Of a stretch of DNA of 20,648 bases, positions 1,070 to 20,648 are shown piece by piece (position 1 is the stretch's first letter; each line of letters opens with the position of its first letter). A program made the translations under genes and the position numbers. Location: IMG/VR virus record IMGVR_UViG_2778261382_000002; one strand, 5' to 3'. The DNA comes from a virus. Taxonomy: Duplodnaviria > Heunggongvirae > Uroviricota > Caudoviricetes. The notes under the pieces are model-generated. The model did no database searches, had not been told where the DNA came from, and saw only the letters and a program-made list of their open reading frames with translations.

Positions 1070-1161
1070 GTATCTTCTTTTTCATTTCCGAAGATGCGTC
1101 CGAAGATGATTTTTCTCTGGACGCATCATCATTCATTTTCTCTGGCCACCAACTACGGGCA

Positions 1162-3975: not shown

Positions 3976-4013
3976 CCACGCATGACCAGCGTGAAATAAC
4001 CGAGGAAAGACCA

Positions 4014-4424: not shown

Positions 4425-4425
4425 T

Positions 4426-5191: not shown

Positions 5192-5304
5192 GTGAGTTGA
5201 AAATACGTCGCAAGGCAATAGCACACGTTAAAAATCCATTACCAGTGCCCGCCGAATGCCATTTTTGTGGTGGGAATGTACGGATTGGTACGTATGTATG
5301 GTGA
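5188..5304 (+). CDS. Small hypothetical protein (38 aa) with one CxxC motif
   Basis: Not in the supplied ORF track (below 60 aa). ATG at 5188 overlaps the upstream stop (ATGA) and is preceded by GGGAGG 4 nt upstream. Product MSELKIRRKAIAHVKNPLPVPAECHFCGGNVRIGTYVW. Confidence 0.3.
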   Translation: MSELKIRRKAIAHVKNPLPVPAECHFCGGNVRIGTYVW

Positions 5305-5378
5305 TTGCGGAGTGACGTAAAACGAATCGTTGTGGGTGTAATATCGTCAATATCATTGGTTTCCCGGAGGGAAAGGAC

Positions 5379-5528
5379 ATGTTTGGCGATAAACTGGAGT
5401 TACCACGGAACGGGCGGATAGTGCTCTATATTTCAGATTACAAAGTAACCAGGGCTGAGGTGTTGGAACCGGAAAAACATCTGGTCACGTTACCGGACAT
5501 TATTGAGTTGTATAAGCGGGTCGGATAA
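5379..5528 (+). CDS. Small hypothetical protein (49 aa)
   Basis: Not in the supplied ORF track. Strong SD (GGAGGGAAAGGA) immediately upstream of ATG 5379. Product MFGDKLELPRNGRIVLYISDYKVTRAEVLEPEKHLVTLPDIIELYKRVG. Could alternatively be a remnant of a deleted upstream gene. Confidence 0.3.
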   Translation: MFGDKLELPRNGRIVLYISDYKVTRAEVLEPEKHLVTLPDIIELYKRVG

Positions 5529-5546: not shown

Positions 5547-6854
5547 ATGCCGTGGAACAATTTTCCGCACCTCGCCGCCAGGGCGTTCAATCAACCGCTT
5601 TTGCTGGAGCCCACCTACGCGCGGGTATTTTTTTCGGCGCTGAGCGACCGGTTCGGTACCGGGCGACTGATTGATACAGCGTCTGGAGAGGTAATGAACA
5701 GCGACGAAATGAACGCGCTCGCGATGGGGTGGGACAGCAGCGAGCGAACACGCCAGAAATCGTATCGCGTGGAGCGTGGTATAGCCGTTCTGCCGGTTAC
5801 CGGGACGCTGGTTCATAAATTGGGTTATATCAACCCAGTTAGCGGGATGAGCGGTTACGACGGAATCGCAAAACGCCTGCAGCAGGCGATTTCTGATCCC
5901 GATGTAAGAGGGGTCCTGCTTGATATTGACTCCCCTGGCGGTGAAGTCGCCGGCGCGTTTGATACTGCTGATTTAATCGCCCGGGCGCGAGAGCAAAAAC
6001 CTGTGTGGGCGCTGGCCAGCGATACGGCCTGCAGCGCTGCCTATTTGCTGGCGTCAGCGTGTTCGCGCCGGCTGATAACGCAGACAGGCACAGTTGGTTC
6101 AATCGGTGTCCTGATGGCTCACCGCTGCGTCGAAAAAGCGCTGGAGATTGCTGGCGTCGACGTGACGCTGATTTACGCCGGCGCGCACAAAGTTGACGGG
6201 AACCCGTATTCCCAGCTGCCAGGCGACGTTCGCGACGAATTCCAGCTGAGTATTAACAGCACGCGCGAGCAGTTCGCGCAAAAAGTCTCGGATTATACCG
6301 GGCTGAAAAAATCCAGGGTGCTGGCCACGGAAGCTGCAGTATTTATCGGCGCGGACGCGATTAAATCTGGTCTCGCTGATCAACTCGTTAATTACGCGGA
6401 CGCTATCGCAGTGATGGCCGACGCACTGAAACCAAAAATGGAGCGCTTTATGTCTGGTACAGAAACCACGGCGGAGACCACGACCACAGAACAAACCGCG
6501 ACCACGACTACTGTCGCGCAGGTTGAGTTTAACACGGAGCAGATTCGCGCGGACGCCGCATCAAGCGAACTGGCGCGTGTGATGGCCATCATCAATTGTC
6601 CCGAAGCTGTTGGGCGCGAGGCGCAGGCAAAAGCGCTCGCTGGCGTCCCCGGGATGACGGTCGGGCAGGCGCAGGTAGTCCTCGCTGCAGCACCTAAAAC
6701 GGCGCAGGCGCGGACAGAAACGGCGCTCGATACACTAATGAGCACTGAATCACCAGCGACTATTCAGGATGCTGGCAGTACTACGGCAACAGGAACAACC
6801 GCAAACGTCTCGATGCTGGTTGCTGCAGGGCGTTCAATTTTAGGGGATGAATAA
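5547..6854 (+). CDS. Head maturation protease / minor capsid protein C (S49 ClpP-SppA-like), lambda gpC-like
   Basis: 435 aa; N-terminus FNQPLLLEPTYARVFF, GIAVLPVTGTL, DSPGG, KPVWALASDTACSAAYLLASAC and IYAGAHKVDGNPY parallel lambda gpC as I recall it. Strong SD GGGGAGG upstream. Confidence 0.9.
   Translation: MPWNNFPHLAARAFNQPLLLEPTYARVFFSALSDRFGTGRLIDTASGEVMNSDEMNALAMGWDSSERTRQKSYRVERGIAVLPVTGTLVHKLGYINPVSGMSGYDGIAKRLQQAISDPDVRGVLLDIDSPGGEVAGAFDTADLIARAREQKPVWALASDTACSAAYLLASACSRRLITQTGTVGSIGVLMAHRCVEKALEIAGVDVTLIYAGAHKVDGNPYSQLPGDVRDEFQLSINSTREQFAQKVSDYTGLKKSRVLATEAAVFIGADAIKSGLADQLVNYADAIAVMADALKPKMERFMSGTETTAETTTTEQTATTTTVAQVEFNTEQIRADAASSELARVMAIINCPEAVGREAQAKALAGVPGMTVGQAQVVLAAAPKTAQARTETALDTLMSTESPATIQDAGSTTATGTTANVSMLVAAGRSILGDE
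6450..6854 (+). CDS. Putative nested scaffolding protein (Nu3-like), in-frame internal start within C
   Basis: In-frame ATG at 6450 with GGAG 6 nt upstream (another in-frame ATG at 6438); the product would be the C-terminal roughly 135 aa of C, analogous to lambda Nu3 nested in C. Inference from organisation. Confidence 0.35.
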   Translation: MSGTETTAETTTTEQTATTTTVAQVEFNTEQIRADAASSELARVMAIINCPEAVGREAQAKALAGVPGMTVGQAQVVLAAAPKTAQARTETALDTLMSTESPATIQDAGSTTATGTTANVSMLVAAGRSILGDE

Positions 6855-7183
6855 TGACTACAGAAACGTATAGCCCGGACGATTTTATTCTTGGGCCTGA
6901 CCTTGTTGTCACGACCGTCGGTCATTTTCAGGGCGGGATCAACGTACCCCGGCTGACACCGATTATGCTCGACGCTACTGTCGGGACGTTTAAGGTTTGG
7001 GACGGCTCAGTCGGTAAAGCTATTGGCCTCACTGCCACCGCAGTTAATACTGGCTCCAGTTCTGCAGACTGCTCGTACTATAAATCAGGCTCGTTCCGTT
7101 ACACGGCGATTAACTGGGGTACGGTTACCGACGTAGCTAAACGCAAATCAGCATTTGTGGGTACGCCGATCAGCGTCGGCTGA
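6854..7183 (+). CDS. Head decoration protein, lambda gpD-like
   Basis: 109 aa; TPIMLDATVGTFKVWDG, YYKSGSFRY and AFVGTPISVG parallel lambda gpD (TPLMLDTSSRKLVAWDG, FYKSGTFRY, AFAGTAISIV). TAATG overlap with the C stop. Confidence 0.85.
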   Translation: MTTETYSPDDFILGPDLVVTTVGHFQGGINVPRLTPIMLDATVGTFKVWDGSVGKAIGLTATAVNTGSSSADCSYYKSGSFRYTAINWGTVTDVAKRKSAFVGTPISVG

Positions 7184-7202
7184 TAGCAAAAAACTCAAAA
7201 CA

Positions 7203-7225
7203 AGCCGCCTCCGGGCGGTTTTTTT
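7203..7225 (+). terminator. Putative intrinsic terminator or attenuator after the decoration gene
   Basis: GC stem CCGCC/GGCGG with 4-nt loop, followed by a T7 run, 20 nt after the D stop. Confidence 0.5.
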
Positions 7226-7241
7226 ATAACAGGATATATAA

Positions 7242-8276
7242 ATGAGCGATTCGTTTACTACGTCAGAACTGATTACCGCGACACAGCAGGTATTTAAGTT
7301 CAATCCGTTGTTTTTAAATCTGTTTTTCCGTGAGACCTACACGTTTACGAGCGAAGAGGTTTTTCTGGATAAAATCCCGGGAAAAGTGAACATGGCCGTG
7401 TACTGCGCGCCGATGATCACCGGCAAAGTTGACCGCACTCGCGGCTATTCAACGAACCATTTCAAACCGGGTTACACGAAACCCAAGCACACGATCAATC
7501 CGAATATGAGCATCAAGCGCGCAGCCGGTGAGCAGATTGGCCAGCCGGAAACGCCGGTCGAACGTCGTGCAAAAATCATCATGCAGAACCTGCTTGATGA
7601 GGAACTGAGCATCAGCCAGCTCGAAGAGTTCCAGGCGGTACAGGCTGTTCTGTACGGTAAATACACTGTTTCCGGCAGCAATATCGAGACATATGAGATC
7701 GACATGAGCCGCAGCGCGACGAATAACGTCACTCAGTCCGGTTCGACAGCCTGGTCGACTCAGGACGCGGAAACGTATGACCCGAGCGACGATATTGAAT
7801 CCTACGCGGACCTCGCCTCCGGTGCGGTTAACGTGATCATCATGGATGGTAAAGCCTGGAAGCAGTTGAAGCGTTTTAAAAAATTCTGGACGGCACTGGA
7901 TACGCGCCGTGGCTCAAACAGCCAGCTCGAGGTCGCGCTGAAAAACCTGGGCGACGTTGTCAGCTTTAAAGGCTACTACGGCGACACTGCGCTGTTTGTC
8001 TACAAAGGGCAATACCTCGACCCGGTAACAGATACTGAAACGCGTTATATGCCGGATAACACGATGATCCTTGGCAACACAAAAAACCGCGGGCTCCGCA
8101 CTTATGGCGCAATTCAGGACGAAGACGCGCTGAAAGAGGGTATTTCCGAAGCGACGCGCTATCCAAAAGTCTGGACCACTACCGGTGATCCGGCAGTGAC
8201 GCAAACAATGACGCAATCCGCGCCAGCAATGGTCCTCACGGACGCCGACGCGTTCGTTGTCGTAAAAATCGCGTAA
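7242..8276 (+). CDS. Major capsid protein, lambda gpE-like
   Basis: 344 aa; FKFNPLFLNLFFRETYTFTSEEVFLDKIPG, PGYTKPKH, IIMQNLLDEELSISQLEEFQAVQAVLYGKYT, LDTRRGSNSQLE, PDNTMILGNT, LRTYGAIQDEDA and RYPKVWTTTGDPA closely parallel lambda gpE. Confidence 0.93.
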   Translation: MSDSFTTSELITATQQVFKFNPLFLNLFFRETYTFTSEEVFLDKIPGKVNMAVYCAPMITGKVDRTRGYSTNHFKPGYTKPKHTINPNMSIKRAAGEQIGQPETPVERRAKIIMQNLLDEELSISQLEEFQAVQAVLYGKYTVSGSNIETYEIDMSRSATNNVTQSGSTAWSTQDAETYDPSDDIESYADLASGAVNVIIMDGKAWKQLKRFKKFWTALDTRRGSNSQLEVALKNLGDVVSFKGYYGDTALFVYKGQYLDPVTDTETRYMPDNTMILGNTKNRGLRTYGAIQDEDALKEGISEATRYPKVWTTTGDPAVTQTMTQSAPAMVLTDADAFVVVKIA

Positions 8277-8296
8277 GAGTCGAAAGGCTCTTTTTT
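8277..8296 (+). terminator. Putative intrinsic terminator after the major capsid gene
   Basis: Stem GAGTC/GGCTC with GAAA tetraloop, followed by T6, immediately after the E stop. Confidence 0.45.
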
Positions 8297-8310
8297 GTTA
8301 AGGAATCAAC

Positions 8311-8730
8311 ATGAGCACAAAAACAGAATTGCTGGCGCGTATTGACGATATGAGCGCTCAGCTCGGTCGCGAATTACCGCGCAGCGGGACTATTGCGGAA
8401 CTGGAATCAATCGTTGCCGGCGCTGAGTCAGAGCTCGATATTCTGAACGAGCAATCCGGTGACGCGGGAGGCATCGAGATTACAGTGAATACTGCGTCCG
8501 GGACCGATAATGAACTCGCTCAATCAATCGCGAGCGCTATCGTTTCACAGTCACAAGAGCAGGAGCTCGCACCGGCTACGCGCCGCGTCAAGTTGCGTAA
8601 CACGCTGGACGTTTATCACTACGTGAACGGGCGTCGCGTTCGCGAGATTGTTGCCGCAGGCCGTGAAATTGTTGTTGATTCACCGGAGGTCGCAGACCTT
8701 ATCGCAGCTGATCACGTTTACGCTCTATGA
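8311..8730 (+). CDS. DNA-packaging accessory protein, lambda gpFI-like
   Basis: 139 aa; N-terminus MSTKTELLARIDDMSAQLGRELPRSGTIAELESIVAGAESELD parallels lambda gpFI (MTKDELIARLRSLGEQLNRDVSLTGTKEELALRVAELKEELDD). Position after E as in lambda. Confidence 0.7.
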   Translation: MSTKTELLARIDDMSAQLGRELPRSGTIAELESIVAGAESELDILNEQSGDAGGIEITVNTASGTDNELAQSIASAIVSQSQEQELAPATRRVKLRNTLDVYHYVNGRRVREIVAAGREIVVDSPEVADLIAADHVYAL

Positions 8731-9107
8731 GCTACTACGATGACCTCCGGGCCGGCGACGAGGAGATGATCCGTGAGTGGGGACGGCCCGTTAAATTACG
8801 CGGTAAAACCGACCCCATTATCGCTATTTTCAACGAGCCTTACGCGCGCGTTGACGTTCCTCACGCTGGTTTTATTACCGGTACAGTAACGAGCCTGACG
8901 GCGTTCTCGGACGACGTCGCTGGCGTTGTTGCGCGTGACGTCGTCCAGGTTCCAAAGCAGCGCAGCATCGAACCTGACGGCTCTGTTACCTGGTCTGGCT
9001 GGACCGATTACGTGGTTAAAGAGCCTCAACCTGATGGCACAGGGCTCACGAATATTTTTTTAGAGCCTCACACGTCCAGCGAAAACAGCGAGTATTCAAA
9101 ATACTAA
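8727..9107 (+). CDS. Head-tail joining / head completion protein, lambda gpFII-like
   Basis: 126 aa; ATGA-coupled to FI; overall pattern resembles lambda gpFII; position conserved. Confidence 0.55.
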   Translation: MSYYDDLRAGDEEMIREWGRPVKLRGKTDPIIAIFNEPYARVDVPHAGFITGTVTSLTAFSDDVAGVVARDVVQVPKQRSIEPDGSVTWSGWTDYVVKEPQPDGTGLTNIFLEPHTSSENSEYSKY

Positions 9108-9138
9108 GTGGGACCTCGGTCCCACTTAAGGGGGAACC

Positions 9139-9819
9139 GTGGCCGATTTACGTAGTAACGCGCAGATGTTCGATATCGATGTTTCGGCGCTGGAGCAGCT
9201 CAGAGTCGAAATCAGCGCGACGCAACATCAAATGTTAATGGTATACAACAGGGCGCTGAACCGAACTGCAAAACATATGCACCGAATTTCAGCAGGAATG
9301 ATTTTGACTGCACTGGCAGCTAAAAATCATAAGGCCGTAGATAAACGAATCAAGCCGTTCATTAAGCGCCGTAATTTTACAAAAGAAGGGGCAGGAGACC
9401 TGAGCAGCGCCAAGCTCTGGTACGGTCTGAATGATTTCCGGGTATCTGAGCTAAAGGGGCGATTACAAAATCCACGGAGGCAAAAACAGCCTCGCGATCT
9501 TGAGACCGGCCTGTTTTTGAAAACCAAAAAAGGCGCTAGAGGGGCAACTTTTACACCCAAAAGTGCAGGGCTGGCGATGATGAGTTGGCCCGATTCATTC
9601 GTAGCGAAACGCTACGGTGCGAAAAGTGTCTGGATTCGACTGGATCGCGGAGGAATCGAAGAGGCTCGCGTACCTGTGCACGACGCGCTGGAGGATGCTA
9701 TCGATGATTATATTTTTGAAAACATTGGCCCTGTTTTTATGGGCTTTTTTGAGAAAGATTTGCGCGGTCGCGTGAAAGGTAATGTCCACGTAGACCCAAA
9801 AACAGGTAAACGATTATGA
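9139..9819 (+). CDS. Putative head-tail connector or tail completion protein (position of lambda Z / P2 R-S)
   Basis: 226 aa, GTG start preceded by strong SD AAGGGGG; basic protein between head-completion and baseplate genes. Function inferred from position only. Confidence 0.4.
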   Translation: MADLRSNAQMFDIDVSALEQLRVEISATQHQMLMVYNRALNRTAKHMHRISAGMILTALAAKNHKAVDKRIKPFIKRRNFTKEGAGDLSSAKLWYGLNDFRVSELKGRLQNPRRQKQPRDLETGLFLKTKKGARGATFTPKSAGLAMMSWPDSFVAKRYGAKSVWIRLDRGGIEEARVPVHDALEDAIDDYIFENIGPVFMGFFEKDLRGRVKGNVHVDPKTGKRL

Positions 9820-10352
9820 GCGGACTGGATGCATTTGACGAATATCTTGATCGCGTTAAAGGCGCGGTTTTACAAATACCGTTCATCAAAACATTCGGAA
9901 TTTATCCGGAAATTCCGGCTGGATTTGAAACGCCAGCTCTGTTCCTGGAAATCAGCAACTGGTCACAGAGTGACGAATCGGTTCCAGGCTCAATTCAGTC
10001 AGTCGAGCTGTCGTGTAATTTGTATTTGCTGCGTGAATTTGCAGCTGATCAGTACGGACTGAAATCGCAGAATGCAGCGCTCTATATGACGAGCTGGATC
10101 AATGGGCGAATGTTCGGTCCCGGAACTAAACCGGCAAAATTCAGCGACGCGGAACCGTGCGACTGGATTAAAAACGGGCAGTCAGTCGGTTCGCATTCAG
10201 TTCAGTGCGTGTCGTTCACGCAGGTTGTAGGCGTTGGTCCAGATATTTTCGATTATCCCTCACAGGGGACCCTGAAAAATATATACGTCGGAATAGCACC
10301 AGATATCGGCGCAGAACATGAGGGCGACTATTATGGCCCAATCGGACGATGA
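9816..10352 (+). CDS. Putative tail completion / tail terminator protein (position of P2 gpR-S / lambda gpU)
   Basis: 178 aa, ATGA-coupled to the upstream gene, immediately precedes the baseplate spike gene. Function inferred from position only. Confidence 0.4.
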   Translation: MSGLDAFDEYLDRVKGAVLQIPFIKTFGIYPEIPAGFETPALFLEISNWSQSDESVPGSIQSVELSCNLYLLREFAADQYGLKSQNAALYMTSWINGRMFGPGTKPAKFSDAEPCDWIKNGQSVGSHSVQCVSFTQVVGVGPDIFDYPSQGTLKNIYVGIAPDIGAEHEGDYYGPIGR

Positions 10353-11235
10353 ATATGCTGCAGCGGAGAACGCGCGCAGGCTGCGTGACGCAGTTAAACG
10401 CGGCACGATAGCTGCAGTTAAAATGAATCCTCCACGCTGCCGAGTCTCATTTGGTGGCGAACACCAGTCAGGCTGGCTGCAGTGGTTTACTCACGCCACC
10501 TCAGAACGCGTCGACTGGAGCGCACCATCAGTGGGCGATCCCGTTACTGTTGTTTCTGAGGGTGGGGATACGCGGAACGGTGTAGTTATGCTCGGGCTGC
10601 ACATTGACGACAAAGCTCCGTCAAGCAATGACCCCCATGATCATGTCACTGCATACTGTGACGGGGCTACGATGACGTATAACACAAAAAATCACACTCT
10701 GACATGGCAGGGCGTACCGGACGGCGTGGTAAAAATACTCGGTGAGTCTGAAATAGAAATATTTGGACGCGCAGATGTTACTATTAATAGCGAAAATGTA
10801 GTTAATATCCATGGTGGGAAATTAATTAACGCAGACGCTGATATTATTAATGTCACAGCGACAGATACAATTAACGCACATGCTGATTTAGTGAACGTTA
10901 TAGCAACGAGTTCTGTTAGTGTTACTGCTGCGAACAGAATATCGCTGACAGCTCAAACAATCAGCGCGTGGGCTCCGGGTGGTATAACACTAGCTGGTCC
11001 AACGCATATTACCGAGACATTAGTAGTAGATAAATTAGCGACATTCCGTAACGATATTTCTGTCACTGGAGATAACGGTGGAACAGGTAATATCACAACT
11101 CGCGGTAGTGTGTTAGCAGGGCAAGAGGTGCAGGACCGACAAGGCACAATGACTGAGGTCCGCACAACGTACAACGGACACACTCATATATGTCCGGACG
11201 GGGAAACACAACAACCGAACCAACCAATGGCGTAA
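10333..11235 (+). CDS. Baseplate central spike protein, P2 gpV-like
   Basis: N-terminal region CRVSFGGEHQSGWLQWFTHATS...WSAPSVGDPV parallels P2 gpV; C-terminal beta-helix-like repeats (VTINSENVVNIHGGKLINADADIINVTATDTINAHADLVNV) and an apex HxH motif (YNGHTHICPDG). ATG 10333 has GAGGG 8 nt upstream; the ATG at 10318 is an alternative start. Confidence 0.85.
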   Translation: MAQSDDEYAAAENARRLRDAVKRGTIAAVKMNPPRCRVSFGGEHQSGWLQWFTHATSERVDWSAPSVGDPVTVVSEGGDTRNGVVMLGLHIDDKAPSSNDPHDHVTAYCDGATMTYNTKNHTLTWQGVPDGVVKILGESEIEIFGRADVTINSENVVNIHGGKLINADADIINVTATDTINAHADLVNVIATSSVSVTAANRISLTAQTISAWAPGGITLAGPTHITETLVVDKLATFRNDISVTGDNGGTGNITTRGSVLAGQEVQDRQGTMTEVRTTYNGHTHICPDGETQQPNQPMA

Positions 11236-11237
11236 AT

Positions 11238-11579
11238 ATGCTTGGAATGGACCGTAACACCGGTAAGCCTTTATCGGGGACTGATCACATTTGTCAGTCT
11301 ATCGTTGATATTTTAACGACCCCGCTGGGAACCCGTGTAATGTTGCCGGAATACGGCAGCAAATTATTTGACCTCGTTGATAATCCCACTGATCCGTCGC
11401 TTGCTATGAGAATAATAATGGAAAGTGCAGGAGCAATAGCACGCTGGGAACCACGCGTCAGAATTGACAGAATAAATGTGTTAGCAGTGGACATCGGGAA
11501 AATAACAATATTAATTATCGCAACAGATATCGAAACACAACAGCGATTAGAGTTTAATAATATGGAACTGATATTTTGA
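11238..11579 (+). CDS. Baseplate wedge protein, P2 gpW / T4 gp25-like
   Basis: MLGMDRNTGKPLSGTDHICQSIVDILTTPLGTRVMLPEYGSKLFDLVDNP parallels P2 gpW (YLGMNRSDG...HISQSIGDILRTPVGSRVMRRDYGS). Start chosen by alignment; the track ORF begins at 11190. Confidence 0.85.
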   Translation: MLGMDRNTGKPLSGTDHICQSIVDILTTPLGTRVMLPEYGSKLFDLVDNPTDPSLAMRIIMESAGAIARWEPRVRIDRINVLAVDIGKITILIIATDIETQQRLEFNNMELIF

Positions 11580-12496
11580 TAACATCAACAGTTCAGAATT
11601 CGATAGTGAAAACTATTGATATGAGTCTGCTGCCGCCGCCAGCATTCGTTAAAACCCCATTATTTTCAGATGTTAAATCCAGTCTACTGTCAGAATTGCA
11701 GATATTATATCCACAATTTAACGCACTCCTGGAGTCAGACCCGGCCGTTAAACTGCTGGAAATAGTTGCATACAGAGAAATCATTATTACAGCTCGGGTA
11801 AATCAGGGGATGCTCGCTGTATTGCTCGCGTTTGCAAAAGGGAGTGACCTCGACCAGATCGGCGCTAATTTTGACTGCCTGCGGCTGTTGATAACGCCAG
11901 CTAATCCTGACGCAATTCCTCCGACTGAGGGGGTTTACGAGAGTGACGACGAGTATCGTCATCGCATACAGCTATCATGGTACGCGCGGAATACTGCCGG
12001 CAGTACGAACGCCTATAACTATTTCGCGCTGTCGAGTGATCCCGACGTTCTGTCAGCTCAGGCGTACGGCCCGCCGGTGACCCAGCCTGGATACGTCGAT
12101 ATGTATGTTTTGTCGCGAACCGGCGACGGCACTCCGCCTCAATCACTACTGAATACAGTGAATGCGGCCCTGTCTCCTGACGATACTCGACCGCTGACTG
12201 ATTTCGTGACTGTAAAACCTGCGTCGAACCTGAATTACCGGGTTGAAGCCGTTATCGTAGCGGGGCTCGGTCCCGATCAGAACGTGTTGCTCAACGGTGC
12301 TCAAAGCGATTTAGCTATATACGTGGCTACACAACATAAAATCGGGGCGACAGCAGCCCTGTCAGGAATTTACGACGCGATACATCGTGACGGAACGGAG
12401 CGTGTGATTCTGATATCGCCAACAGAGGATGTGATTGCTGGCGTCGGACAGGCTCCGTACTGCACAGAAATCAAACTCAGCGTGCAAATGGGGTAG
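11576..12496 (+). CDS. Baseplate assembly protein, P2 gpJ-like
   Basis: 306 aa; KLLEIVAYREIIITARVNQ, DLDQIGANFDCLRLLITPA and ESDDEYRHRIQLS parallel P2 gpJ. The track start at 11576 is TTG; the ATG at 11621 (MSLLPPPAF) is a plausible alternative. Confidence 0.88.
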   Translation: MITSTVQNSIVKTIDMSLLPPPAFVKTPLFSDVKSSLLSELQILYPQFNALLESDPAVKLLEIVAYREIIITARVNQGMLAVLLAFAKGSDLDQIGANFDCLRLLITPANPDAIPPTEGVYESDDEYRHRIQLSWYARNTAGSTNAYNYFALSSDPDVLSAQAYGPPVTQPGYVDMYVLSRTGDGTPPQSLLNTVNAALSPDDTRPLTDFVTVKPASNLNYRVEAVIVAGLGPDQNVLLNGAQSDLAIYVATQHKIGATAALSGIYDAIHRDGTERVILISPTEDVIAGVGQAPYCTEIKLSVQMG

Positions 12497-12498
12497 CC

Positions 12499-13125
12499 AT
12501 GACAAGTCAAAGCGTACTGCCTCCGAACGCAATAACCCCTGAGAGGGCGCTTGAGGTTGTTTTATCTCACGTCGGCGATCTGCCTGGCGATATTCGAATT
12601 ATTAAAAATCCCGATTTGTGCCCTGCAAATCTGTTGCCGTGGCTGGCGTGGGAGTACGCGGTCACCTACTGGAACCCCGACTGGAGCGAGCAGCAAAAAC
12701 GCGAAATTATTAAGGCCGCAGCCTGGCAAAATAAACATCGCGGCACGCGTGGTGCCGTCGAACGAGCATTATTAACGGTGGGATTTGAGAGCAAAATGAG
12801 AGAGTGGTTTGAAGCCACGCCCAGGGACGACCCGTATACATTCGCAATTAAAATATATCTGCTAAAAAGTATAGGGTTAGATTTAGAACTATTGAATACC
12901 TTTATTGCACAAATATTTGATGCAAAAAATTGCCGTTCCTTATTAAAAGAAATAAATTTTGAAACGGGTGTCGATGGTGAATTTTTTATAGCTGGTGCGC
13001 CTTACGCGAAAATAGGCGTAAATATCCCAGCAGACGGCGACGGCGGTGTAAAAATTAACGGCGGGCTATATATATCAGGCTCGCCAATTGTGAGTTTGTT
13101 AGTGGAGATAGGACCTAATGGCTAA
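12499..13125 (+). CDS. Baseplate / tail protein, P2 gpI-like
   Basis: 208 aa immediately after gpJ in conserved order; LLPWLAWEYAVTYWNPDWSEQQKREII is typical of the gpI family. Confidence 0.8.
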   Translation: MTSQSVLPPNAITPERALEVVLSHVGDLPGDIRIIKNPDLCPANLLPWLAWEYAVTYWNPDWSEQQKREIIKAAAWQNKHRGTRGAVERALLTVGFESKMREWFEATPRDDPYTFAIKIYLLKSIGLDLELLNTFIAQIFDAKNCRSLLKEINFETGVDGEFFIAGAPYAKIGVNIPADGDGGVKINGGLYISGSPIVSLLVEIGPNG

Positions 13126-14329
13126 ATTAAAATCAAATCTGAAAGCGAGCGCGAGCCAGGTTTATGCGGTACTGACAGACCGGGGGGCGCAACTTGAAGC
13201 CGCTGCGCTGGCATCGGGTGTACCCGTGGTGCTGAATAAATTCGTTATTGGCGACGCAAACGGAAACGACGACGTAACACCGGACCCGGCACGAACTGCA
13301 TTAATTCACGAGACGTATCGTGGGGATATTAAATCCGCAGAAAATAGCGGTAACCAGGTTATCTTTACACTTTACGTACCGCCAGACACTGGGGGCTATA
13401 CTATCCGTGAGGTGGGGATATTAACAGATAAAGGCGAGCTGTACTCTGTGGCGCGCTCGCCGGACATTTTAAAACCTACGGACAGCAACGGTGCGCTGAT
13501 TTCAATCACGTATAAATACACACTCGCGGTGTCCAGCACATCTACGGTTAATGTTGTAGTATATGACAACTACGTAACTCCCGAGGAAGCTGACAAAAAA
13601 TATTTGCAGATAAGTAAAAACTTATCTGAAATTCCCGCAAATGGTGAAACTGCTCAGCAGGCTGCGCGGAAAAATATTGGTATAGATGGGGACGTTGCAT
13701 ATAGAGATAAGGGTAATGCATTTACTCATCCAAATACTTTTAAAGATGATGTGATTTTTGAAGACGTTTTATCCTCTAAAAAACAAATAAATATAAACAA
13801 ACCGGGCACTGATTTGACGTTGTTTTCACTTGCTGGTTTATCAGATGTGTCGGGCGATTATTTAGATTTTTCGACCCGTGGAGAAAACAATCAGAAGGTT
13901 TTTTATAGATTACGCGGAGTTCACTATGATGGCCTGGTATTACTGTGTGGCGGAATGACGTATAAATACTGGAATGAGGCTAATCTTAAACCGGTTAAAA
14001 CGATTAACGGGGAGTCGCCGGATGAAAATGGCAACATAGATATAAGTCTTTCACCGGACCCATCACCGGAAATAGGTGTTGTTGGCGCGGTTAATACTTA
14101 TGCGCTTGTCGCTATTAATCATGCACCACAAATACTACCGGGCTCCATATGGGCTGGAGGTGATTTATATTACGCTAGTATAAATAATACCGGTTCATAT
14201 AACACGGATATTGCCACAAAACCATTTTATGACACACCCCTTGTTGGCTCATGGCGAGCTATGGCGTATTCACCAGGCGGGGTCGGTGATATTGGGACTG
14301 CCTGTTTTTTAGCTATTAGGATTGCGTAA
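13118..14329 (+). CDS. Tail fiber protein (P2 gpH-like N-terminal domain, divergent A+T-rich C-terminal receptor-binding region)
   Basis: N-terminal roughly 150 aa (VIGDANGNDDVTPDPARTALIHETYRGDI...YVPPDTGGYTIREVGILTDKGELYSVA) parallel the P2 gpH N-terminus. The C-terminal roughly 250 aa are unrelated and visibly more A+T-rich. Confidence 0.85.
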   Translation: MAKLKSNLKASASQVYAVLTDRGAQLEAAALASGVPVVLNKFVIGDANGNDDVTPDPARTALIHETYRGDIKSAENSGNQVIFTLYVPPDTGGYTIREVGILTDKGELYSVARSPDILKPTDSNGALISITYKYTLAVSSTSTVNVVVYDNYVTPEEADKKYLQISKNLSEIPANGETAQQAARKNIGIDGDVAYRDKGNAFTHPNTFKDDVIFEDVLSSKKQININKPGTDLTLFSLAGLSDVSGDYLDFSTRGENNQKVFYRLRGVHYDGLVLLCGGMTYKYWNEANLKPVKTINGESPDENGNIDISLSPDPSPEIGVVGAVNTYALVAINHAPQILPGSIWAGGDLYYASINNTGSYNTDIATKPFYDTPLVGSWRAMAYSPGGVGDIGTACFLAIRIA

Positions 14330-14619
14330 TGATAAGTGTTGATTCATTTAGAAAAATAACAAACCCTGTTTTTAATGACGAGCATGGGTTATCTATAAAT
14401 ATTATTTGCGATATTGACGGGATTGGAAACGACATTCCATTCACCGCAATGAAAAATGATTGCGAGGAACACGGTAGGGTTTTATATGAAAGAGCGCTGA
14501 GCGGGGATTATGGGAGCATTTCTAAATTTGTAAAAAAGAGCAGACGCAAAAACTCCAGACTACATTACGGACTGTTGGCGATCTGTCAATTGAGGCATTC
14601 TCAATTCAGTGTGCAGTAG
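14329..14619 (+). CDS. Putative tail fiber assembly chaperone (possibly frameshifted; continuation 14526-14717 in another frame)
   Basis: TAATG-coupled to the fiber gene, in the expected Tfa position. A second frame open from 14526 to the TGA at 14715-14717 encodes ...SIQCAVDAGTASDAQIENLAELKEAIATRIGENREGIK, which resembles Tfa C-terminal motifs; the frames meet at an A6 tract (14532-14537). Confidence 0.45.
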   Translation: MISVDSFRKITNPVFNDEHGLSINIICDIDGIGNDIPFTAMKNDCEEHGRVLYERALSGDYGSISKFVKKSRRKNSRLHYGLLAICQLRHSQFSVQ

Positions 14620-14713
14620 ATGCCGGAACCGCATCTGACGCGCAAATCGAAAACTTGGCCGAGCTTAAAGAAGCAATAGCGACGCGAATTGGTGAAAATA
14701 GAGAAGGAATAAA

Positions 14714-16216
14714 ATGAGCGTAACTAATTTTTTGCACGGTATTCGCACGCTCGAATACGACGACGGCACAAAAGAGATCAACACAGTAGATATTTCCGTG
14801 ATTGGGATTGTTGGTACTGCGACGAACGTCGCGGAGGCTACGAGAGCATCATTAACGTGGGGCTCATCGCTGGCTGATAATCTCGTTGAGTTTTCAACTG
14901 TATCACCGGGCAGCGACGGGAATAAATGGGTTGTTGAAATTGTAGATATGACAGTTGAGGGCGCAACCTGCACTCCAGGATATAGCACGCTGCCCGACGG
15001 AACAAAAAAATTAACGATGATTACGGAGCCGGGAATGACCCCCGGCAAAATGTATGATCAGAATCAGGAATATAGAGAGGGGAAAACAGACGGAGAGTGG
15101 ATTAATGTAACTTTTGGTGGCGAGCATTCCGGAACCGGTACAGTATTTGGTCTTCCACCAACAAATTTATCAGGTGGAACAGATGACGCATTCCCGATTA
15201 ATTCTCCTGTATTAATTGCAGGTAGTCAGAAGAAAGCCGCCCTGCTCGGGAAATACGGGACTCTGCCCCCCGCTATTTCTGATATTTTAAATCAGACTGA
15301 TGCATTAATCGTTGTTGTTCGCGTTGTAGAGAGTAGCGACGACGCTGATATGAGCGAAAATGTTATCGCCGGAATTAATTCGCTTTTGACGTCAGCGCAA
15401 ATTAACGAAGTTACCCCGCGAATTATTATAGCGCCGGATTACAGCGCACGAGACGAAATAGCGGCTCAGCTTGAAGTGGTTGCAAATAAACTCCGGGGAG
15501 TGTGTTATATCGACTCTCCGCGCGCTGCTACCCCTGCAGACGTTGTGAATCGCAGGCAAAAACTCGGCGGACGCGCTGAGTTGTTGCGACCTCGCGTTTA
15601 TTCTACGAGTGATGTCAGTGGGTTATCTCGTCCGTATTCAGCTATCGCTGCTGGTTTACGAGCCCGAATTGATAATGAAAAAGGATTCTGGTGGAGTAAA
15701 TCGAACCAGAATATCTACGGAGTTACAGGGCTTGAACAAGTCGACGATTTTATTATTGGTGAGACAAACTGCACAGCGAACCTGCTGAATGCCAGCCAGG
15801 TCAGCACGATTATTCGCTATGACGGGTTCAGACACTGGGGTAACTATTTGTGCAGCCTCAGCCCGCAATGGTCTTTCGAGAGCGTTCGTCGAACAGCTGA
15901 CGTAATTGAGGATTCTATAGCCCGGGCAATGATGACCGATTTTATTGTTCGTCCGATAGACCTGCACCTCGGAACAGACGTTGTCGAGTCGATAAACGCA
16001 TATCTGCACAAATTAGAGGAGCAGGGTGCGATTAACGGAGGGCGTGCGTGGTTAGACAGTGAGCTGAATACAAAAGAAAGCCTGGCTGCGGGTAATCTTT
16101 ATATTAATGTTGATTTTGGTCCGAAATCTCCGGCACAAACAATTACGTTAATGTACCGCATTAATAATGACTATACAGTTGAAGCACTGGCCTCCCTTTT
16201 TAAAGAAGCAGCCTGA
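14714..16216 (+). CDS. Contractile tail sheath protein, P2 gpFI-like
   Basis: 500 aa; VIGIVGTA near the N-terminus and the C-terminal GFWWSKSNQNIYGVTG...TIIRYDGFRHWGNYLCS...LYINVDFGP parallel P2 FI. Confidence 0.92.
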   Translation: MSVTNFLHGIRTLEYDDGTKEINTVDISVIGIVGTATNVAEATRASLTWGSSLADNLVEFSTVSPGSDGNKWVVEIVDMTVEGATCTPGYSTLPDGTKKLTMITEPGMTPGKMYDQNQEYREGKTDGEWINVTFGGEHSGTGTVFGLPPTNLSGGTDDAFPINSPVLIAGSQKKAALLGKYGTLPPAISDILNQTDALIVVVRVVESSDDADMSENVIAGINSLLTSAQINEVTPRIIIAPDYSARDEIAAQLEVVANKLRGVCYIDSPRAATPADVVNRRQKLGGRAELLRPRVYSTSDVSGLSRPYSAIAAGLRARIDNEKGFWWSKSNQNIYGVTGLEQVDDFIIGETNCTANLLNASQVSTIIRYDGFRHWGNYLCSLSPQWSFESVRRTADVIEDSIARAMMTDFIVRPIDLHLGTDVVESINAYLHKLEEQGAINGGRAWLDSELNTKESLAAGNLYINVDFGPKSPAQTITLMYRINNDYTVEALASLFKEAA

Positions 16217-16233
16217 TAATTCGGAGATTAAAT

Positions 16234-16746
16234 ATGTCAGACAGCAACGCTTACCGCGCGTTTGCGCTATTCGTGCAGGGCGAACGGGTTTTAAATTGTA
16301 CTGAATATACTCCAGTCGATATGAAAATAATCGAAGACGAGTTTAAAACAGGCGCGATGGATACAGCTATCACTCTGGACGGAGGAATGGAGAAAATGTC
16401 AGCCAGTTTTAAAGTCTCTGGCTCCGATTCTGGTGTGATGGGGTATTTTGGATTAATACCAGGTGCTAAAACAAGGTTCGAAATTCGAAGTGCATATACT
16501 GACAATTACGGTGTCAATTTTGAACGTATTGATACATATGAGGGGCTTATTACGGCGATTACTGATGACGCGCAGGGGACTGATTCAAAATCAGCAGTTG
16601 GGCAATCAGTAACGATTGCGCCGAGCTATTATAAACGAGTTCAAAATGGAAAAGTTATTTACGAGATTCATCCTGCAAAAATGAAACGAGTAATTAATGG
16701 TGTTGACGTTCTTGCGGGCGTTGCTCGTATTCTCCATGTATATTAA
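16234..16746 (+). CDS. Tail tube protein, P2 gpFII-like
   Basis: 170 aa directly after the sheath gene; C-terminus KRVINGVDVLAGVARILHVY resembles the P2 FII C-terminus; GGAG SD 8 nt upstream. Confidence 0.88.
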   Translation: MSDSNAYRAFALFVQGERVLNCTEYTPVDMKIIEDEFKTGAMDTAITLDGGMEKMSASFKVSGSDSGVMGYFGLIPGAKTRFEIRSAYTDNYGVNFERIDTYEGLITAITDDAQGTDSKSAVGQSVTIAPSYYKRVQNGKVIYEIHPAKMKRVINGVDVLAGVARILHVY

Positions 16747-16758
16747 AAGGCAAATAAA

Positions 16759-17040
16759 ATGGAATCATTATTAGACAGTATGACTATTACGCTCTCTCGC
16801 CCGTTTATTATTAAGGGTGAGAGCCGCGATACAATTACTATTCGCGAACCAAAATTACGCGACCGCATTATGTTCAGTAACGATAAAAGTGGTCTTGAAG
16901 AGCGGACAGCGACAATGCTGGCGCGCCTGGCAAATCTGGAGCGTGAGGATTTATATGCACTGCCTGCGTGCGATTACGATCAAATGGAGGCCGCGTTTAA
17001 CGAACTGGTAAAGCCCCCGAAAGACCGACATCAGATATAG
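16759..17040 (+). CDS. Tail assembly chaperone, P2 gpE-like
   Basis: 93 aa between the tube and tape-measure genes, the conserved position and size of gpE. Confidence 0.75.
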   Translation: MESLLDSMTITLSRPFIIKGESRDTITIREPKLRDRIMFSNDKSGLEERTATMLARLANLEREDLYALPACDYDQMEAAFNELVKPPKDRHQI

Positions 17041-17171
17041 TTATTCTGATTCCGTTTATTGCGAAAAAACTTGCCATCCCGCCCGATACGCAAATGGACC
17101 TGCCGTACCGGGTTTTTAATTTCTATGTAAACGAGGTCATGAAAATCGATGGCTATTTCTCAAAACTTTAA
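16759..17171 (+). CDS. Putative E+E' tail assembly chaperone made by programmed -1 translational frameshift
   Basis: The -1 frame opens at 17001 (preceding stop 16998-17000) and runs to TAA 17169-17171, overlapping the tape-measure start and encoding a protein-like extension (...IPFIAKKLAIPPDTQMDLPYRVFNFYVNEVMKIDGYFSKL). This mirrors P2 E/E' and lambda G/GT. No canonical X-XXY-YYZ heptamer found between 17001 and 17037. Confidence 0.45.
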
Positions 17172-18789
17172 AACGCAGGTTGTATTCGGTGGGCGAATAA
17201 ACCCGTCGTTTCGTCGCGGTACAACAGAACTCAATGATGCGATTCGGCAGACGTCGTCTACTGTCGGGAAATTAACGAAAAGTCAGGATAAATTAAAAGA
17301 CAAAATCGCAGCAATGAAACTGGCAGGTAAAGACGTTTCTGATTTATCTGCTCAGTATCAAAAGCTGGACCGTCGGATAAAAGCGACAACGCAGGACCAG
17401 GAGGCGCTGAATACTCAACTTGCTAAAAAACAGCAGCTGGAGAAGTGGACGGGTCGCGCAAAAGGAGCTGCAAAATGGGGCGGACGAGCCGCCGCAGGTG
17501 CGGTGAGGGCTACGGGGCGGGGTATCAAATGGGGGACACTTGGCGCGGCAGGGCTCATTGGCGGTGCTGCAGCTGGTGCGCTGGCAATGAATGCAGAGAC
17601 GTCAGAAAAACTCGGTCTGGCGAAGTCCTACGGCGTTGGCGTCGAAAAATACGCTGCGTGGGAAAATATTGGTAAAGCCGCGGGCCTGAACGGCGAAAAT
17701 ATCGGGGATTTGTCTGAAGAACTTACAAATAAAATCGGCGAAATCGGAAACGAAAAAAGCCTGAATCCCATGTTATTTCAAATTGGCCTGACGAAAAAAC
17801 GAATGGCTGGCTGGGATCGGGAAAAACAGTTTAATGAGGTTATGCGTCGCATCTCTGAAATGAAAGATGAGAAGCAAGCGGCGAGCCTCGCTGACCAGCT
17901 CATGGGGGGCGAGGCTAATAAGATCATGACGTATATGAAGGCGACGGGTAAAAGCTGGGAACAGACAATGTCTGACGCGCAAAAGTCGAATTTGTTAACA
18001 AAAGAGGGTGCGGAAGGGGCGGCGCGTGCGCATGTATCAGTGACAAATCTGTGGGGCTCTATTACGTCGGGACTTGCAGATACACTCGGTAAAATCGGGG
18101 GGGAACTCGCGCCGACGTTTGACTCAGTACGTGAAACATTTACATCCTGGTTTAAGGATAATCAGGGTGGTTTTGTCAGCACAATTACTGAGTGGGTAAA
18201 ACCAGAAAATATGAAAAAAATGTGGGATGGCATCGTCAATTTTGGAGAAGGTTGCGTCAAATTCGGGAAGATTATATGGGCTGTCGTAAAGAAACTGGAG
18301 TGGCTTATTCCGGATGAAAAATCAGATGAAGAACAGAAAACTTATAATGACGAATATAATCGGGCATATCAAGAGTTTATGGATTCGGGAGGTAAATATT
18401 CACCGAACGCTGGATTGACTGCTGATAATATTGCGAAGGCAAAAGCCGAAGAGGCTGTCGAAAATATGCGGCATCCAGAACGGCAAGAACAGGCAAAATC
18501 TCAGGCAGAATCAATGCTCGCGTTTGTTAATCCATTATCCGGGATGGTAAATAAAAATACCGCGCCTGCAGCACTGGATTCGTCGACGTTAAATATTGAT
18601 ACGTTGAAGCAGGCAGTCTCGACACCTGCGCCGGAGCAAAACAATAAAATCGAAATCAATATTGTCGGTGCGACAGATCCGCAGTCAATACAACAATCTG
18701 CAGCGTCGGGGGTGCTCGATGGACTGAGACAGGCTGCGAGTTCGTACAATCGTGGCGCGATGTTTGATAAACCAGCGGCGGCGGGGTGA
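17149..18789 (+). CDS. Tail tape measure protein (P2 gpT-like), short form
   Basis: 546 aa, coiled-coil-like N-terminal region, Gly/Ala-rich hydrophobic segment (GTLGAAGLIGGAAAGALA), located after the E/E' chaperone genes. Confidence 0.85.
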   Translation: MAISQNFKTQVVFGGRINPSFRRGTTELNDAIRQTSSTVGKLTKSQDKLKDKIAAMKLAGKDVSDLSAQYQKLDRRIKATTQDQEALNTQLAKKQQLEKWTGRAKGAAKWGGRAAAGAVRATGRGIKWGTLGAAGLIGGAAAGALAMNAETSEKLGLAKSYGVGVEKYAAWENIGKAAGLNGENIGDLSEELTNKIGEIGNEKSLNPMLFQIGLTKKRMAGWDREKQFNEVMRRISEMKDEKQAASLADQLMGGEANKIMTYMKATGKSWEQTMSDAQKSNLLTKEGAEGAARAHVSVTNLWGSITSGLADTLGKIGGELAPTFDSVRETFTSWFKDNQGGFVSTITEWVKPENMKKMWDGIVNFGEGCVKFGKIIWAVVKKLEWLIPDEKSDEEQKTYNDEYNRAYQEFMDSGGKYSPNAGLTADNIAKAKAEEAVENMRHPERQEQAKSQAESMLAFVNPLSGMVNKNTAPAALDSSTLNIDTLKQAVSTPAPEQNNKIEINIVGATDPQSIQQSAASGVLDGLRQAASSYNRGAMFDKPAAAG

Positions 18790-18791
18790 CA

Positions 18792-19214
18792 ATGAGTGAT
18801 GCAATAAACGGTGCTGAGGATATCATGCTCGGCCTGGGTGATTTCATTTTTGCTATATCAACAGTAGCGTACAACAAACTGCAACGTAGTGACGCCTGGC
18901 GCTGGGCTCAGCAAACACGATTCGGGAAAAACGACGCGTTGCAGATAACCGGACGACCGAACCCCACAATTACTATCGATGGAAAGATAAACGCTTTATT
19001 TCTTGACGGGTGCGGCGTCGGCCTGTTGACAGATTTGCGAGCGCTCGGGAACACGGGAGAACCCCAGCAGCTAGTGCTGGGGACCGGGGAGGTGAAAGGG
19101 TACTGGGTGCTGCGAGAACTAACTGAAACGCAAAACAGCTTTTTGATGGGCGGAACACCTAAATCGCAGGACTTTTCACTCACGCTCGAATATTATGGAG
19201 CTTCGCTAGATTAA
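18792..19214 (+). CDS. Tail protein, P2 gpU-like
   Basis: LGLGDFIF...ITIDGKINALF...GYWVLRELTETQNSFLMGG...FSLTLEYYG matches the gpU family pattern. ATG 18792 has GGGG 5 nt upstream; the track ORF starts at GTG 18786, overlapping the tape-measure stop. Confidence 0.8.
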   Translation: MSDAINGAEDIMLGLGDFIFAISTVAYNKLQRSDAWRWAQQTRFGKNDALQITGRPNPTITIDGKINALFLDGCGVGLLTDLRALGNTGEPQQLVLGTGEVKGYWVLRELTETQNSFLMGGTPKSQDFSLTLEYYGASLD

Positions 19215-19388
19215 TACAAAATCAAGCGCTACCAGAGCACTTAACAAGTATAAAAATAATAAAAAAAACTACGAACATAAATGTAAAACAACCTGATGGT
19301 ATTTTTTTTTGACGCCGAAATACTAATACCTCTCCGACTACTAAAATTAATTCTCATTATGAAATCCTTTTAATTAATGGGGCCCCAA

Positions 19389-19601
19389 ATGATTACATAC
19401 ACTACACGGGACGGTGACCGTCTCGATCAGATCTGCCTTGCGGTCTACGGGAGAGCGTCAAAAACGACAGAGACTGTTTTATATCAGGTTTCGAATTACG
19501 GCGTAACGGATATGTGTGCCGTGTTTCGTGCTGGAGAAAAAATTGTTTTACCAGATATCGAACCAGAGCCGGTTAAAAAAGAAACGCAATTATGGGATTG
19601 A
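19389..19601 (+). CDS. Tail protein X, P2 gpX-like
   Basis: MITYTTRDGDRLDQICLAVYGRASKTTETVL parallels P2 gpX (MKTFALQGDTLDAICVRYYGRTEGVVETVL). Start at 19389 chosen by alignment and a weak SD; the track ORF begins at 19377. Confidence 0.82.
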   Translation: MITYTTRDGDRLDQICLAVYGRASKTTETVLYQVSNYGVTDMCAVFRAGEKIVLPDIEPEPVKKETQLWD

Positions 19602-19604
19602 TGA

Positions 19605-20648
19605 ATGAGTGATTACGTAAATACTGGCGTGGAGGCGTGGAAACCTAATTTTTATATATCTGCTGATAATAAAAACATCACGGATAAAATAAGAAAAGGT
19701 TTGATCAATATCACGCTGACAGATTACGGCGGCTCCAGTAAACAGACAGACGAACTCCGCGTAGCAATAGTTTCTGAAACTCTGAAAATTCCGGCCCGCG
19801 GAGTAAAAATCAGTATTGGGCTCGGTTTCGGTAATCAGATAATTGATAAAGGGATATACATCGTTGACGGTGCTAGCAGTGGCGGTGAACCCCGGGTAGT
19901 TGATTTCACAGCAAAAGCGGCTCCGATGAACGCAGCAAAAGGATCTCCGACAGTTCAGAGCAAAAAGACTCGTTCCTGGAGCGACGTCACTGTCAGCGAT
20001 ATCGTTGCGACAATAGCGAGCGATAATGGGCTAAAACCACGCGTATCAAAGCGGTTTGCAGACAATGTTATCACGCAACTCGATCAGGTCGGCGAGTCAG
20101 ATATGCACCTGATGTCGCGGCTCGCAACGAGATTCGATGCGGTGAGTAAACCCGCGGGCGGGTACTGGATATTCCTGCCGCGCGGCGCGGGCGAATCTGT
20201 TAGCGGTGCTCCGCTCCAGCACTACACGCTAACTCGTCGTGATAACTCCAGCTGGGGCTATTCGAGAAATGGACAAAGTGGCGATAGTGGTAGCGGTGGC
20301 GAAAATCCGGAACCGACGTATCTGATTAAATATCACGACACAGCAACTGGGCAGATCAAAGAATTGCGGACAGGTAGTGGCGGCGATCCTGTCATTGAAT
20401 GGCCGGCAGTTGAGCCGTCGCTCGACGCAGCGAAAGAAGCTGCACCAGGGCTCAAGGGCGGTGCAGCTAAAAAAGAGTTCTCTATGACGTACACGACGCC
20501 AGCGACGCTCGATTTAGTGTCGCTGACAGCAGAATGCAAAGTCACAACTCAAGGATTCGGGACCGAGGAGGACCGGGACTGGACTATCAACACACTGAGT
20601 CTGACGCTCGCTGAAAACGGTTTTTCGGTTCGGCTGTCTCTGGAGTAA
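19605..20648 (+). CDS. Tail protein D, P2 gpD-like
   Basis: 347 aa at the end of the tail operon, following U and X as in phiCTX/R-pyocin clusters; Gly/Ser-rich linker (SGDSGSGGENPEP). Assignment rests mainly on position, size and family-typical composition. Confidence 0.75.
   Translation: MSDYVNTGVEAWKPNFYISADNKNITDKIRKGLINITLTDYGGSSKQTDELRVAIVSETLKIPARGVKISIGLGFGNQIIDKGIYIVDGASSGGEPRVVDFTAKAAPMNAAKGSPTVQSKKTRSWSDVTVSDIVATIASDNGLKPRVSKRFADNVITQLDQVGESDMHLMSRLATRFDAVSKPAGGYWIFLPRGAGESVSGAPLQHYTLTRRDNSSWGYSRNGQSGDSGSGGENPEPTYLIKYHDTATGQIKELRTGSGGDPVIEWPAVEPSLDAAKEAAPGLKGGAAKKEFSMTYTTPATLDLVSLTAECKVTTQGFGTEEDRDWTINTLSLTLAENGFSVRLSLE

Follow-up and report, generated by a model that had tools for sequence, protein, structure and literature searches.

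A lambda-family head and a P2/R-pyocin-type contractile tail in a defective leuZ prophage of Escherichia coli, with head-cassette exchange among its relatives at the 3' end of FII

The IMG/VR virus record IMGVR_UViG_2778261382_000002 (Caudoviricetes) provides a stretch of 20,648 nucleotides, referred to here as the window, that is, the whole stretch of DNA that was analysed, in which positions 5,547 to 20,648 join head genes of the lambda type to the genes of a contractile tail. The locus raises the question of whether a siphovirus head has been newly combined with a myovirus tail, as the initial annotation proposed when it described a mosaic particle, or whether the layout belongs to an existing kind of phage. 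The evidence indicates that the region very probably comprises the late genes, those for the virion, of a defective prophage at the leuZ gene of Escherichia coli, and that this prophage stems from a widespread group of temperate myoviruses with a lambda-family head, a lambda-style neck, and a P2/R-pyocin-type tail, in which the head and tail blocks can be exchanged.

The gene calls of the initial annotation, for both the head genes and the tail genes with their order, are borne out by Pfam and PHROGs at their coordinates, and all the virion genes lie on the plus strand. Specifically, the head module follows the lambda-type order C, D, E, FI, FII (Pfam, PHROGs, blastp) and consists of a gpC-type S49 head protease/scaffold (5547..6854; Peptidase_S49, 1e-37; 55% identical to lambda C), a gpD-type head decoration protein (6854..7183; phrog_49, 8e-22; 38% identical to lambda D), a gpE-type major capsid protein (7242..8276; Phage_cap_E, 1e-59; 56% identical to lambda E), a gpFI-type packaging chaperone (8311..8730; Packaging_FI; phrog_92, 2e-30; 31% identical to lambda FI), and a gpFII-type head-closure protein, or Hc1 (8727..9107; Phage_attach; phrog_82). 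The decoration protein scores 29.0 bits against the Pfam family HDPD, 0.1 bit short of the cut-off of 29.1, and is backed by PHROG and blastp. The statement that the head tracks lambda closely is right as to the family but overstated as to the distance, considering the identities of 55, 56, 38, and 31% for C, E, D, and FI, the link of FII to lambda FII by profile only, and a best capsid match of 58% in phage records outside the E. coli clade. As for heads of the P2 type, the P2 proteins N and L have no match in the window or in any relative. Downstream of FII, positions 9139-20648 hold, by gene content, a complete P2-type contractile tail block, in which every one of the families V, W, J, I, H, FI, FII, E, T, U, X, and D has a representative, T being assigned by position and PHROG; the identity of the tail proteins to those of P2/phiCTX is 26-40%.

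The distribution of this layout bears directly on its supposed novelty. Relatives were fetched from genomes and IMG/VR with an alignment of homologues of the protein encoded at 9139, the first gene of the tail block; the scan of genome contigs by one peptide pattern returned 5 loci, and the wider diversity comes from the IMG/VR scan. The order 9139, 9816, V, W, J, I, H, sheath, tube, E, T, U, X, D is repeated in dozens of viral loci, and the full layout, with lambda-family A, W, B, C, D, E, (FI), and FII upstream, is found in several groups, whose capsid and sheath identities to the window are 78-83% and 56-64%, 64-66% and 46-47%, 46-47% and 43%, and, in the most diverged group, 33-47% and 36-43%, respectively. 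The full layout also occurs in E. whittamii, in another Enterobacteriaceae genome, and, gene for gene, in the cultured Vibrio phage Valp1, which electron microscopy has revealed to be a myovirus, its head measuring 60 nm and its contractile tail 90 nm (PMC11054321). VHML, whose genome sequence dates from 2002, shares this gene order in its annotation, including U-X-D, and its capsid gives no BLAST match to the E protein of the window. Lavigne et al. (2009) reported that the P2 homology of this group is limited to the tail operons (PMC2771037), and searching the literature for 'lambda-like head' and 'P2-like tail' as phrases found no match. The layout is already known and widespread, not a new mosaic, and the window holds an ordinary E. 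coli representative of it.

A recent, one-off chimera, in which the head of a lambda-like siphovirus was newly joined in E. coli to a P2/phiCTX-like tail to give a new particle type, could account for the closest named relatives of the two blocks, which are lambdoid siphoviruses for the head (56-58%) and myoviruses for the tail, and for the sharp step at the junction in the G+C content of third codon positions (GC3) that is described below. However, such an origin is very improbable, given that the combination exists at every level of divergence down to the 33-47% capsid identity of the most distant group and in Valp1, that phiCTX does not have the gene order of the window, that the neck genes at 9139 and 9816 are common to relatives with other head types, and that the distances among heads and among tails are correlated. 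The last point derives from 14 representative loci, in which C or E was compared with J or the sheath and neighbour-joining trees were built: the matrices of head distances correlate with those of tail distances (Mantel r 0.59-0.87, p=2e-4), and the trees have 6-9 of 11 splits and the same three major clades in common, with one clear switch, that of locus L065, whose head goes with L064 and whose tail goes with L059. The initial annotation had offered base composition and separate phylogenies as the check on its proposal; the composition is indeed not uniform, but the head and tail trees are broadly congruent.

The comparison with named systems places the window element in the same group. Valp1 and VHML (and phages of the VP882/phiHAP-1 type) resemble it in the succession of TerS, TerL, gpW, lambda-family portal, S49 protease, decoration protein, capsid, a gene in the FI position, FII, gpZ-like protein, terminator, V-W-J-I-H, sheath, tube, and E-T-U-X-D, of which terminase, gpW, and portal are deleted in the window, and the Valp1 proteins are 28-52% identical to those of the window or of lambda. 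The lifestyles differ: Valp1 and VHML, in both of which a protelomerase is annotated, are linear-plasmid prophages of marine bacteria, whereas the window element sits integrated in the chromosome at leuZ and includes a fragment of an integrase gene. Membership in the genus Vhmlvirus was rejected, as the element is an integrated one with att repeats and an integrase fragment rather than one with protelomerase/linear-plasmid features. Lambda shares the C-D-E-FI-FII order followed by a gpZ-family protein and a gpU-fold terminator, and then, unlike the window, continues with the genes of a non-contractile tail (V, G, T, H onward). Chris1 of Citrobacter, yong2 of Hafnia, and the Salmonella locus L097 have lambda-family terminase, gpW, and portal, an FII-type protein, a gpZ-like protein, a terminator, and the same tail families, with sheaths 46-62% identical to that of the window; conversely, their capsid cassette consists of a ClpP-protease::capsid fusion and not of C-D-E-FI, with a cement protein added in L096 and L097. 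In Chris1 (L006) and yong2 (L007), the W-J-I-H block lies after D while V is still beside the terminator gene, which shows that the tail module has undergone rearrangement in this group.

For the tail, the initial annotation invoked the gene order of both phiCTX and R-type pyocins, and only the second comparison stands. The R2 pyocin of Pseudomonas aeruginosa (PA0615-PA0628) is colinear with the window tail, beginning with the collar/terminator and placing X between U and D. The best relatives of solved structure are PA0615 for the 9816 protein, PA0618 for J, PA0622 for the sheath, PA0626 for U, PA0627 for X, and the 6u5h hub for D, so numbered that the order of the tags is that of the window; the remaining PA genes presumably take the positions expected from the order collar, V, W, J, I, H, chaperone, sheath, tube, E, T, U, X, D. 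The similarity to the pyocin is distant, and the window sheath is longer by about 110-140 N-terminal residues. Head, portal, FII, and gpZ-like genes are all missing from the pyocin, whereas the window has C, D, E, FI, FII, and the gpZ-like gene directly upstream of the tail. The limits of the R2 structural cassette are those published, PA0615-PA0628 (PMC11871291). Conversely, P2 and phiCTX have Q/P/O/N/M/L heads, R and S completion proteins, and tail genes split into separate operons, none of which is found in the window, and in both phages X follows L beside the lysis genes/holin instead of standing between U and D. Comparison with the P2 proteins revealed no homologues of the completion genes R and S in the window or its relatives. 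Membership in the Peduoviridae was likewise rejected, since the head genes are not those of P2 and the gene order is not that of P2.

The junction between the two blocks is occupied by two genes (9139-10352) whose products had been taken for adaptors between a siphovirus-type head and a myovirus-type tail, a role that the comparison does not support. The first (9139..9819) encodes a gpZ-like tail-completion protein, assigned by PHROG 27, 'tail completion or Neck1 protein', at 4e-43. Its link to gpZ rests on PHROG 27 and on the 3 of 26 family members that reach the Pfam family Minor_tail_Z, because the direct comparison of the family profile with the lambda Z sequence gave no signal. The second (9816..10352) encodes a tail terminator of the gpU fold, homologous to the R2 pyocin collar PA0615: Pfam returned no match for any of the 71 members of the family, and the search of the family profile against PDB matched the collar (6u5f) over the full length with E=2e-25. 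Moreover, the AlphaFold model of the protein (predicted local distance difference test, pLDDT, of 84) resembles the pyocin collar, with 19% identity, as well as the Mu terminator, lambda gpU, T5 p142, and T4 gp15. Both genes accompany the tail module whichever head type lies upstream. The two proteins are tail-side parts of the neck, not purpose-built adaptors, and the head-side parts are gpW, which is deleted here, and FII.

In the assembly scheme that these assignments suggest, the virion of the group would combine a packaging/head module (Nu1, A, W, B, C, D, E, FI, FII), a neck formed by the gpW adaptor, the gpFII head-closure protein, and the gpZ-like tail-completion protein, and a contractile tail of the P2/R-pyocin type with the gpU-fold terminator as its cap. 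By analogy with the lambda and P2 assembly pathways, heads and tails would be built separately. The tube and the sheath would polymerise on a baseplate of V, W, J, I, X, D, and U to a length set by T and with the assistance of E/E'; a hexamer of the 9816 protein would then end both the tube and the sheath, the gpZ-like 9139 protein would complete the tail, and the FII ring of the filled head would dock on the terminator through the conserved C-terminus of FII. A connector of the lambda type could seat a contractile tail with no special adaptor because the terminators of myoviruses have the gpU fold as well.

The higher G+C content of the head block, as pointed out by the initial annotation, is confirmed. 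The head block has 54.3% G+C and a GC3 of 0.60, the tail block 46.9% and 0.45, and the flanking host genes a GC3 of 0.55; the GC3 of each of the 5 head genes exceeds that of all 15 tail genes (Mann-Whitney p=1.3e-4). A single change in GC3 is best placed at 9264, about 125 nt beyond the FII|9139 junction, with twice the log-likelihood difference (2dLL) at 90.9 against a maximum of 13.8 in 200 permutations. The step, of 0.15-0.18, is restricted to the clade of E. coli and E. whittamii; it is weaker in the next relatives (about 0.07), and in the majority of the distant ones the head and tail GC3 are equal (|diff| < 0.05 in L033, L035, L050, L059, L064, L065, and L070). The position of the two blocks above and below the host value could reflect selection that acts differently on the two sets of genes, for instance through codon adaptation of strongly expressed capsid genes. 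This explanation is unlikely, since the same genes show no difference between head and tail in the seven distant loci, and since the sheath and the tube are also made in high copy yet have a GC3 among the lowest (0.44 and 0.35, respectively).

A different origin of the step is suggested by a pair of closely related loci. L031 has a lambda-type C-D-E head, and L097, the Salmonella contig, has a lambda-family terminase and portal, the ClpP::capsid fusion, a cement protein, and an FII-type protein, followed by the same tail. From 86 nt before the FII stop codon through the baseplate genes the two are 97.5% identical in nucleotide sequence, and over the sheath and tube 95.5%, whereas their packaging/head blocks, of about 8 kb, have no nucleotide similarity; the breakpoint lies at L031:9883 and L097:9212. 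Short stretches upstream of terS and fragments of the lysis region are also common to both. Similarly, between the window and L036, which has a fusion-type head, nucleotide homology starts 80 nt before the FII stop codon. These comparisons show that the packaging/head block can be swapped as a cassette whose right-hand breakpoint lies in the 3' end of FII. The alignment of the FII proteins explains this position: the C-terminal ~27 residues are conserved whichever head type is present and move together with the tail module, whereas the first ~90 follow the head type. The G+C step of the window falls at the same place as these breakpoints, and in the E. coli clade it was most likely left behind by an exchange within this one phage group. 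Modules of different origin, as originally suggested, thus have the composition step and a real head exchange at the junction in their favour, but the layout is an established one, the head and tail distances are correlated, and the majority of the distant relatives are uniform in composition.

Several observations weigh against this interpretation of the locus. At the resolution of the trees, the head and the tail of the clade presumed to have undergone the exchange both group with the same relatives. The tail is itself patchy in composition, with the GC3 of single genes ranging from 0.35 to 0.53, and more than one event may lie behind the pattern. The proposed docking of FII on the terminator is deduced from the folds of the proteins. 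Lastly, no particle has been seen for the E. coli clade, in which the phage-database records are in-silico predictions only, the 4 'phage' records that match the window being prophage predictions from clinical isolates. With these points in mind, a broader proposal is put forward tentatively, at somewhat less than even chances: the last ~27 residues of FII, the gpZ-like protein, and the terminator may form a portable docking interface, and a recombination hot spot at the 3' end of FII may let enterobacterial temperate myoviruses swap the whole packaging/head block (C-D-E or the ClpP::capsid fusion) on one R-pyocin-like tail, the G+C step of the ST131-associated prophage being the scar of such a swap.

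The remaining features of the block complete the picture of the tail. The 31-nt spacer between FII and the 9139 gene contains a hairpin with a 10-bp stem (GTGGGACC..GGTCCCAC; 9108..9131), detected by a scan for terminator-like elements and located exactly at the boundary of module and G+C content; similar hairpins are present in L016, L018, L028, L031, and L036 and absent from L008, L023, and L029. After the terminator come the gpV baseplate spike (10318..11235; Phage_base_V; 36% identical to P2 V), the gpW/gp25 baseplate wedge protein (11238..11579; GPW_gp25), the gpJ baseplate wedge protein (11576..12496; Baseplate_J; PA0618 in PDB, 5e-60), the gpI baseplate protein (12499..13125; Tail_P2_I, 4e-37), and a tail fibre with an N-terminus of the P2 gpH type (13118..14329; Phage_tail_fib). 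The small fibre-associated gene after H (14329..14619), for which RefSeq calls no coding sequence, was recognised by BLASTP against the copy in the ST131 (sequence type 131) strain JJ1886: its product equals that of the ST131 copy for 70 residues and then runs out of register, giving 96 instead of 129 amino acids, and the gene is probably inactivated in this copy. The tail sheath (14714..16216; Pfam; PA0622 in PDB, 7e-47) has 500 amino acids against 396 in P2 and 386 in the pyocin, with the PA0622 match beginning at residue 143 and an N-terminus longer than those of P2 FI and PA0622 by the ~110-140 residues mentioned above. Within 14824-16300, the nucleotide identity to the JJ1886 copy in a sliding comparison falls to 67-91%, with flanking genes at ~100%, a patch that looks like localised recombination or a hypervariable region over the extra sheath domain.

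The tail tube (16234..16746; Phage_tube) is followed by a gpE-type tail assembly chaperone (16759..17040; Phage_TAC_7), across whose end the -1 frame is open for 57 codons (17001..17171) into T. By translation and by analogy with P2 E/E', this frame is a candidate E' extension, consistent with a frameshift product, and a search for a canonical slippery heptamer (X XXY YYZ) found none, only a CCCCC run at 17015-17019. The presumed tape-measure protein T (17149..18789; phrog_3654, 2e-260) owes its name to the strong PHROG match and to its position between E and U, as for T of P2; phrog_3654 is listed as of unknown function, and Pfam gives no tape-measure match for the gene. Then follow the gpU tube initiator (18792..19214; Phage_P2_GpU; PA0626 in PDB), the gpX LysM 'glue' protein between U and D (19389..19601; Phage_tail_X; PA0627 in PDB), and the gpD baseplate hub (19605..20648; phrog_52, 3e-94; 6u5h of pyocin R2 in PDB). 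The gap between U and X (19215-19388) is non-coding, 174 nt long, and A+T-rich (~39% G+C), with a hairpin of 10-bp stem at 19221-19245.

Upstream of the head genes, the window documents both the integration site and the decay of the element. Positions 1-1002 belong to the E. coli chromosome, with the end of pgsA and, at 701..1002 on the plus strand, the genes for tRNA-Gly, tRNA-Cys, and tRNA-Leu(taa), that is, glyW-cysT-leuZ (ARAGORN and the RefSeq annotation of an identical locus). The prophage is inserted at the 3' end of leuZ, and RefSeq places yecA on its opposite flank. The left attachment core, attL (947..1071), is a 100% direct repeat in L001 and L002; its 125 bp recur in the same genome downstream of the tail genes, outside the window, and the stretch is annotated as attP in phage mEp390. 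The repeat at the 3' end of leuZ is common to the siphoviruses mEp390, 520873, and Fostie (88-99% identity), and unrelated phages therefore use one integration site. The early region is a remnant (1072..5523) of integrase, Gp157, and RepO fragments and small open reading frames (RefSeq pseudogene flags; Pfam): the genes for integrase, Gp157, and RepO at 1133-2587 are flagged as fragments, and only a DnaB-type helicase (2584-3975; Pfam) and a few small open reading frames are intact.

The remnant ends at a deletion junction, 5523/5524, which fuses it to the structural block. Similarity to the sister copies that bear terminase, gpW, and portal begins abruptly at 5524, 23 nt upstream of the C gene, and in the JJ1886 copy these structural genes are preceded by antiterminator Q, two holins, an endolysin, TerL, gpW, and portal; because of these two facts, the window holds a deletion derivative without late control, lysis, packaging, and portal genes. 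In agreement with the annotation and the comparison with sister copies, no lambda-family terminase (Nu1/A), gpW, or portal B lies upstream of C in the window, and RefSeq annotation and Pfam reveal no lysis cassette or late activator in it, whereas the sister copies L002 and L095 encode A proteins 42-45% and B proteins 64% identical to those of lambda. The gene set of a functional prophage is incomplete in the integrase, Gp157, and RepO fragments, in the lysis, terminase, gpW, and portal genes, and in the frameshifted fibre-associated gene. The late regulators, lysis genes, terminase, gpW, and portal have all been lost from this copy by deletion, and, judging from the loss of portal and terminase, this copy is predicted to be unable to form particles, so the word particle in the initial annotation does not apply to it.

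The preserved tail might instead be explained by domestication, with E. coli retaining the tail block as a tailocin and the head genes being mere leftovers: the tail open reading frames from terminator to hub are all open and colinear with PA0615-PA0628, and the capsid-to-terminator segment (7242-10352) is present in 448 of 5426 complete E. coli genomes (~8%), ST131 included. This explanation is hardly credible, since the window has neither a lysis cassette nor a late activator, the fibre-associated gene is frameshifted, and the deletion form is seen in only 2 of the same 5426 genomes. Moreover, the window is ~100% identical to the fuller ST131 prophage of JJ1886 across the head and most tail genes, which argues for a recent deletion and not for an anciently selected state, and a sister strain has IS1 in V/W. 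In this strain, AHB18, the insertion sequence IS1 (L001:18750-19447, corresponding to about 10695-11605 of the window) replaces the 3' part of V, the whole of W, and the start of J, and is further evidence of the decay of the element. A tailocin or an element domesticated in the manner of a gene transfer agent was rejected on account of the missing lysis and regulatory genes and the recent deletion. The window is best described as holding a defective copy of a temperate myovirus.

The analysis gives names to two proteins annotated as 'hypothetical' that about 8% of the complete E. coli genomes encode, ST131 included, namely the gpZ-like tail-completion protein and the PA0615-type terminator, and identifies a common E. 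coli prophage as a phage with a lambda-type head and a contractile tail that is neither P2-like nor lambda-like. L031 and L097 offer a clean natural case of the exchange of a whole head module, with a breakpoint defined inside FII, a position that could serve as a guide in designing chimeric phages or tailocins.

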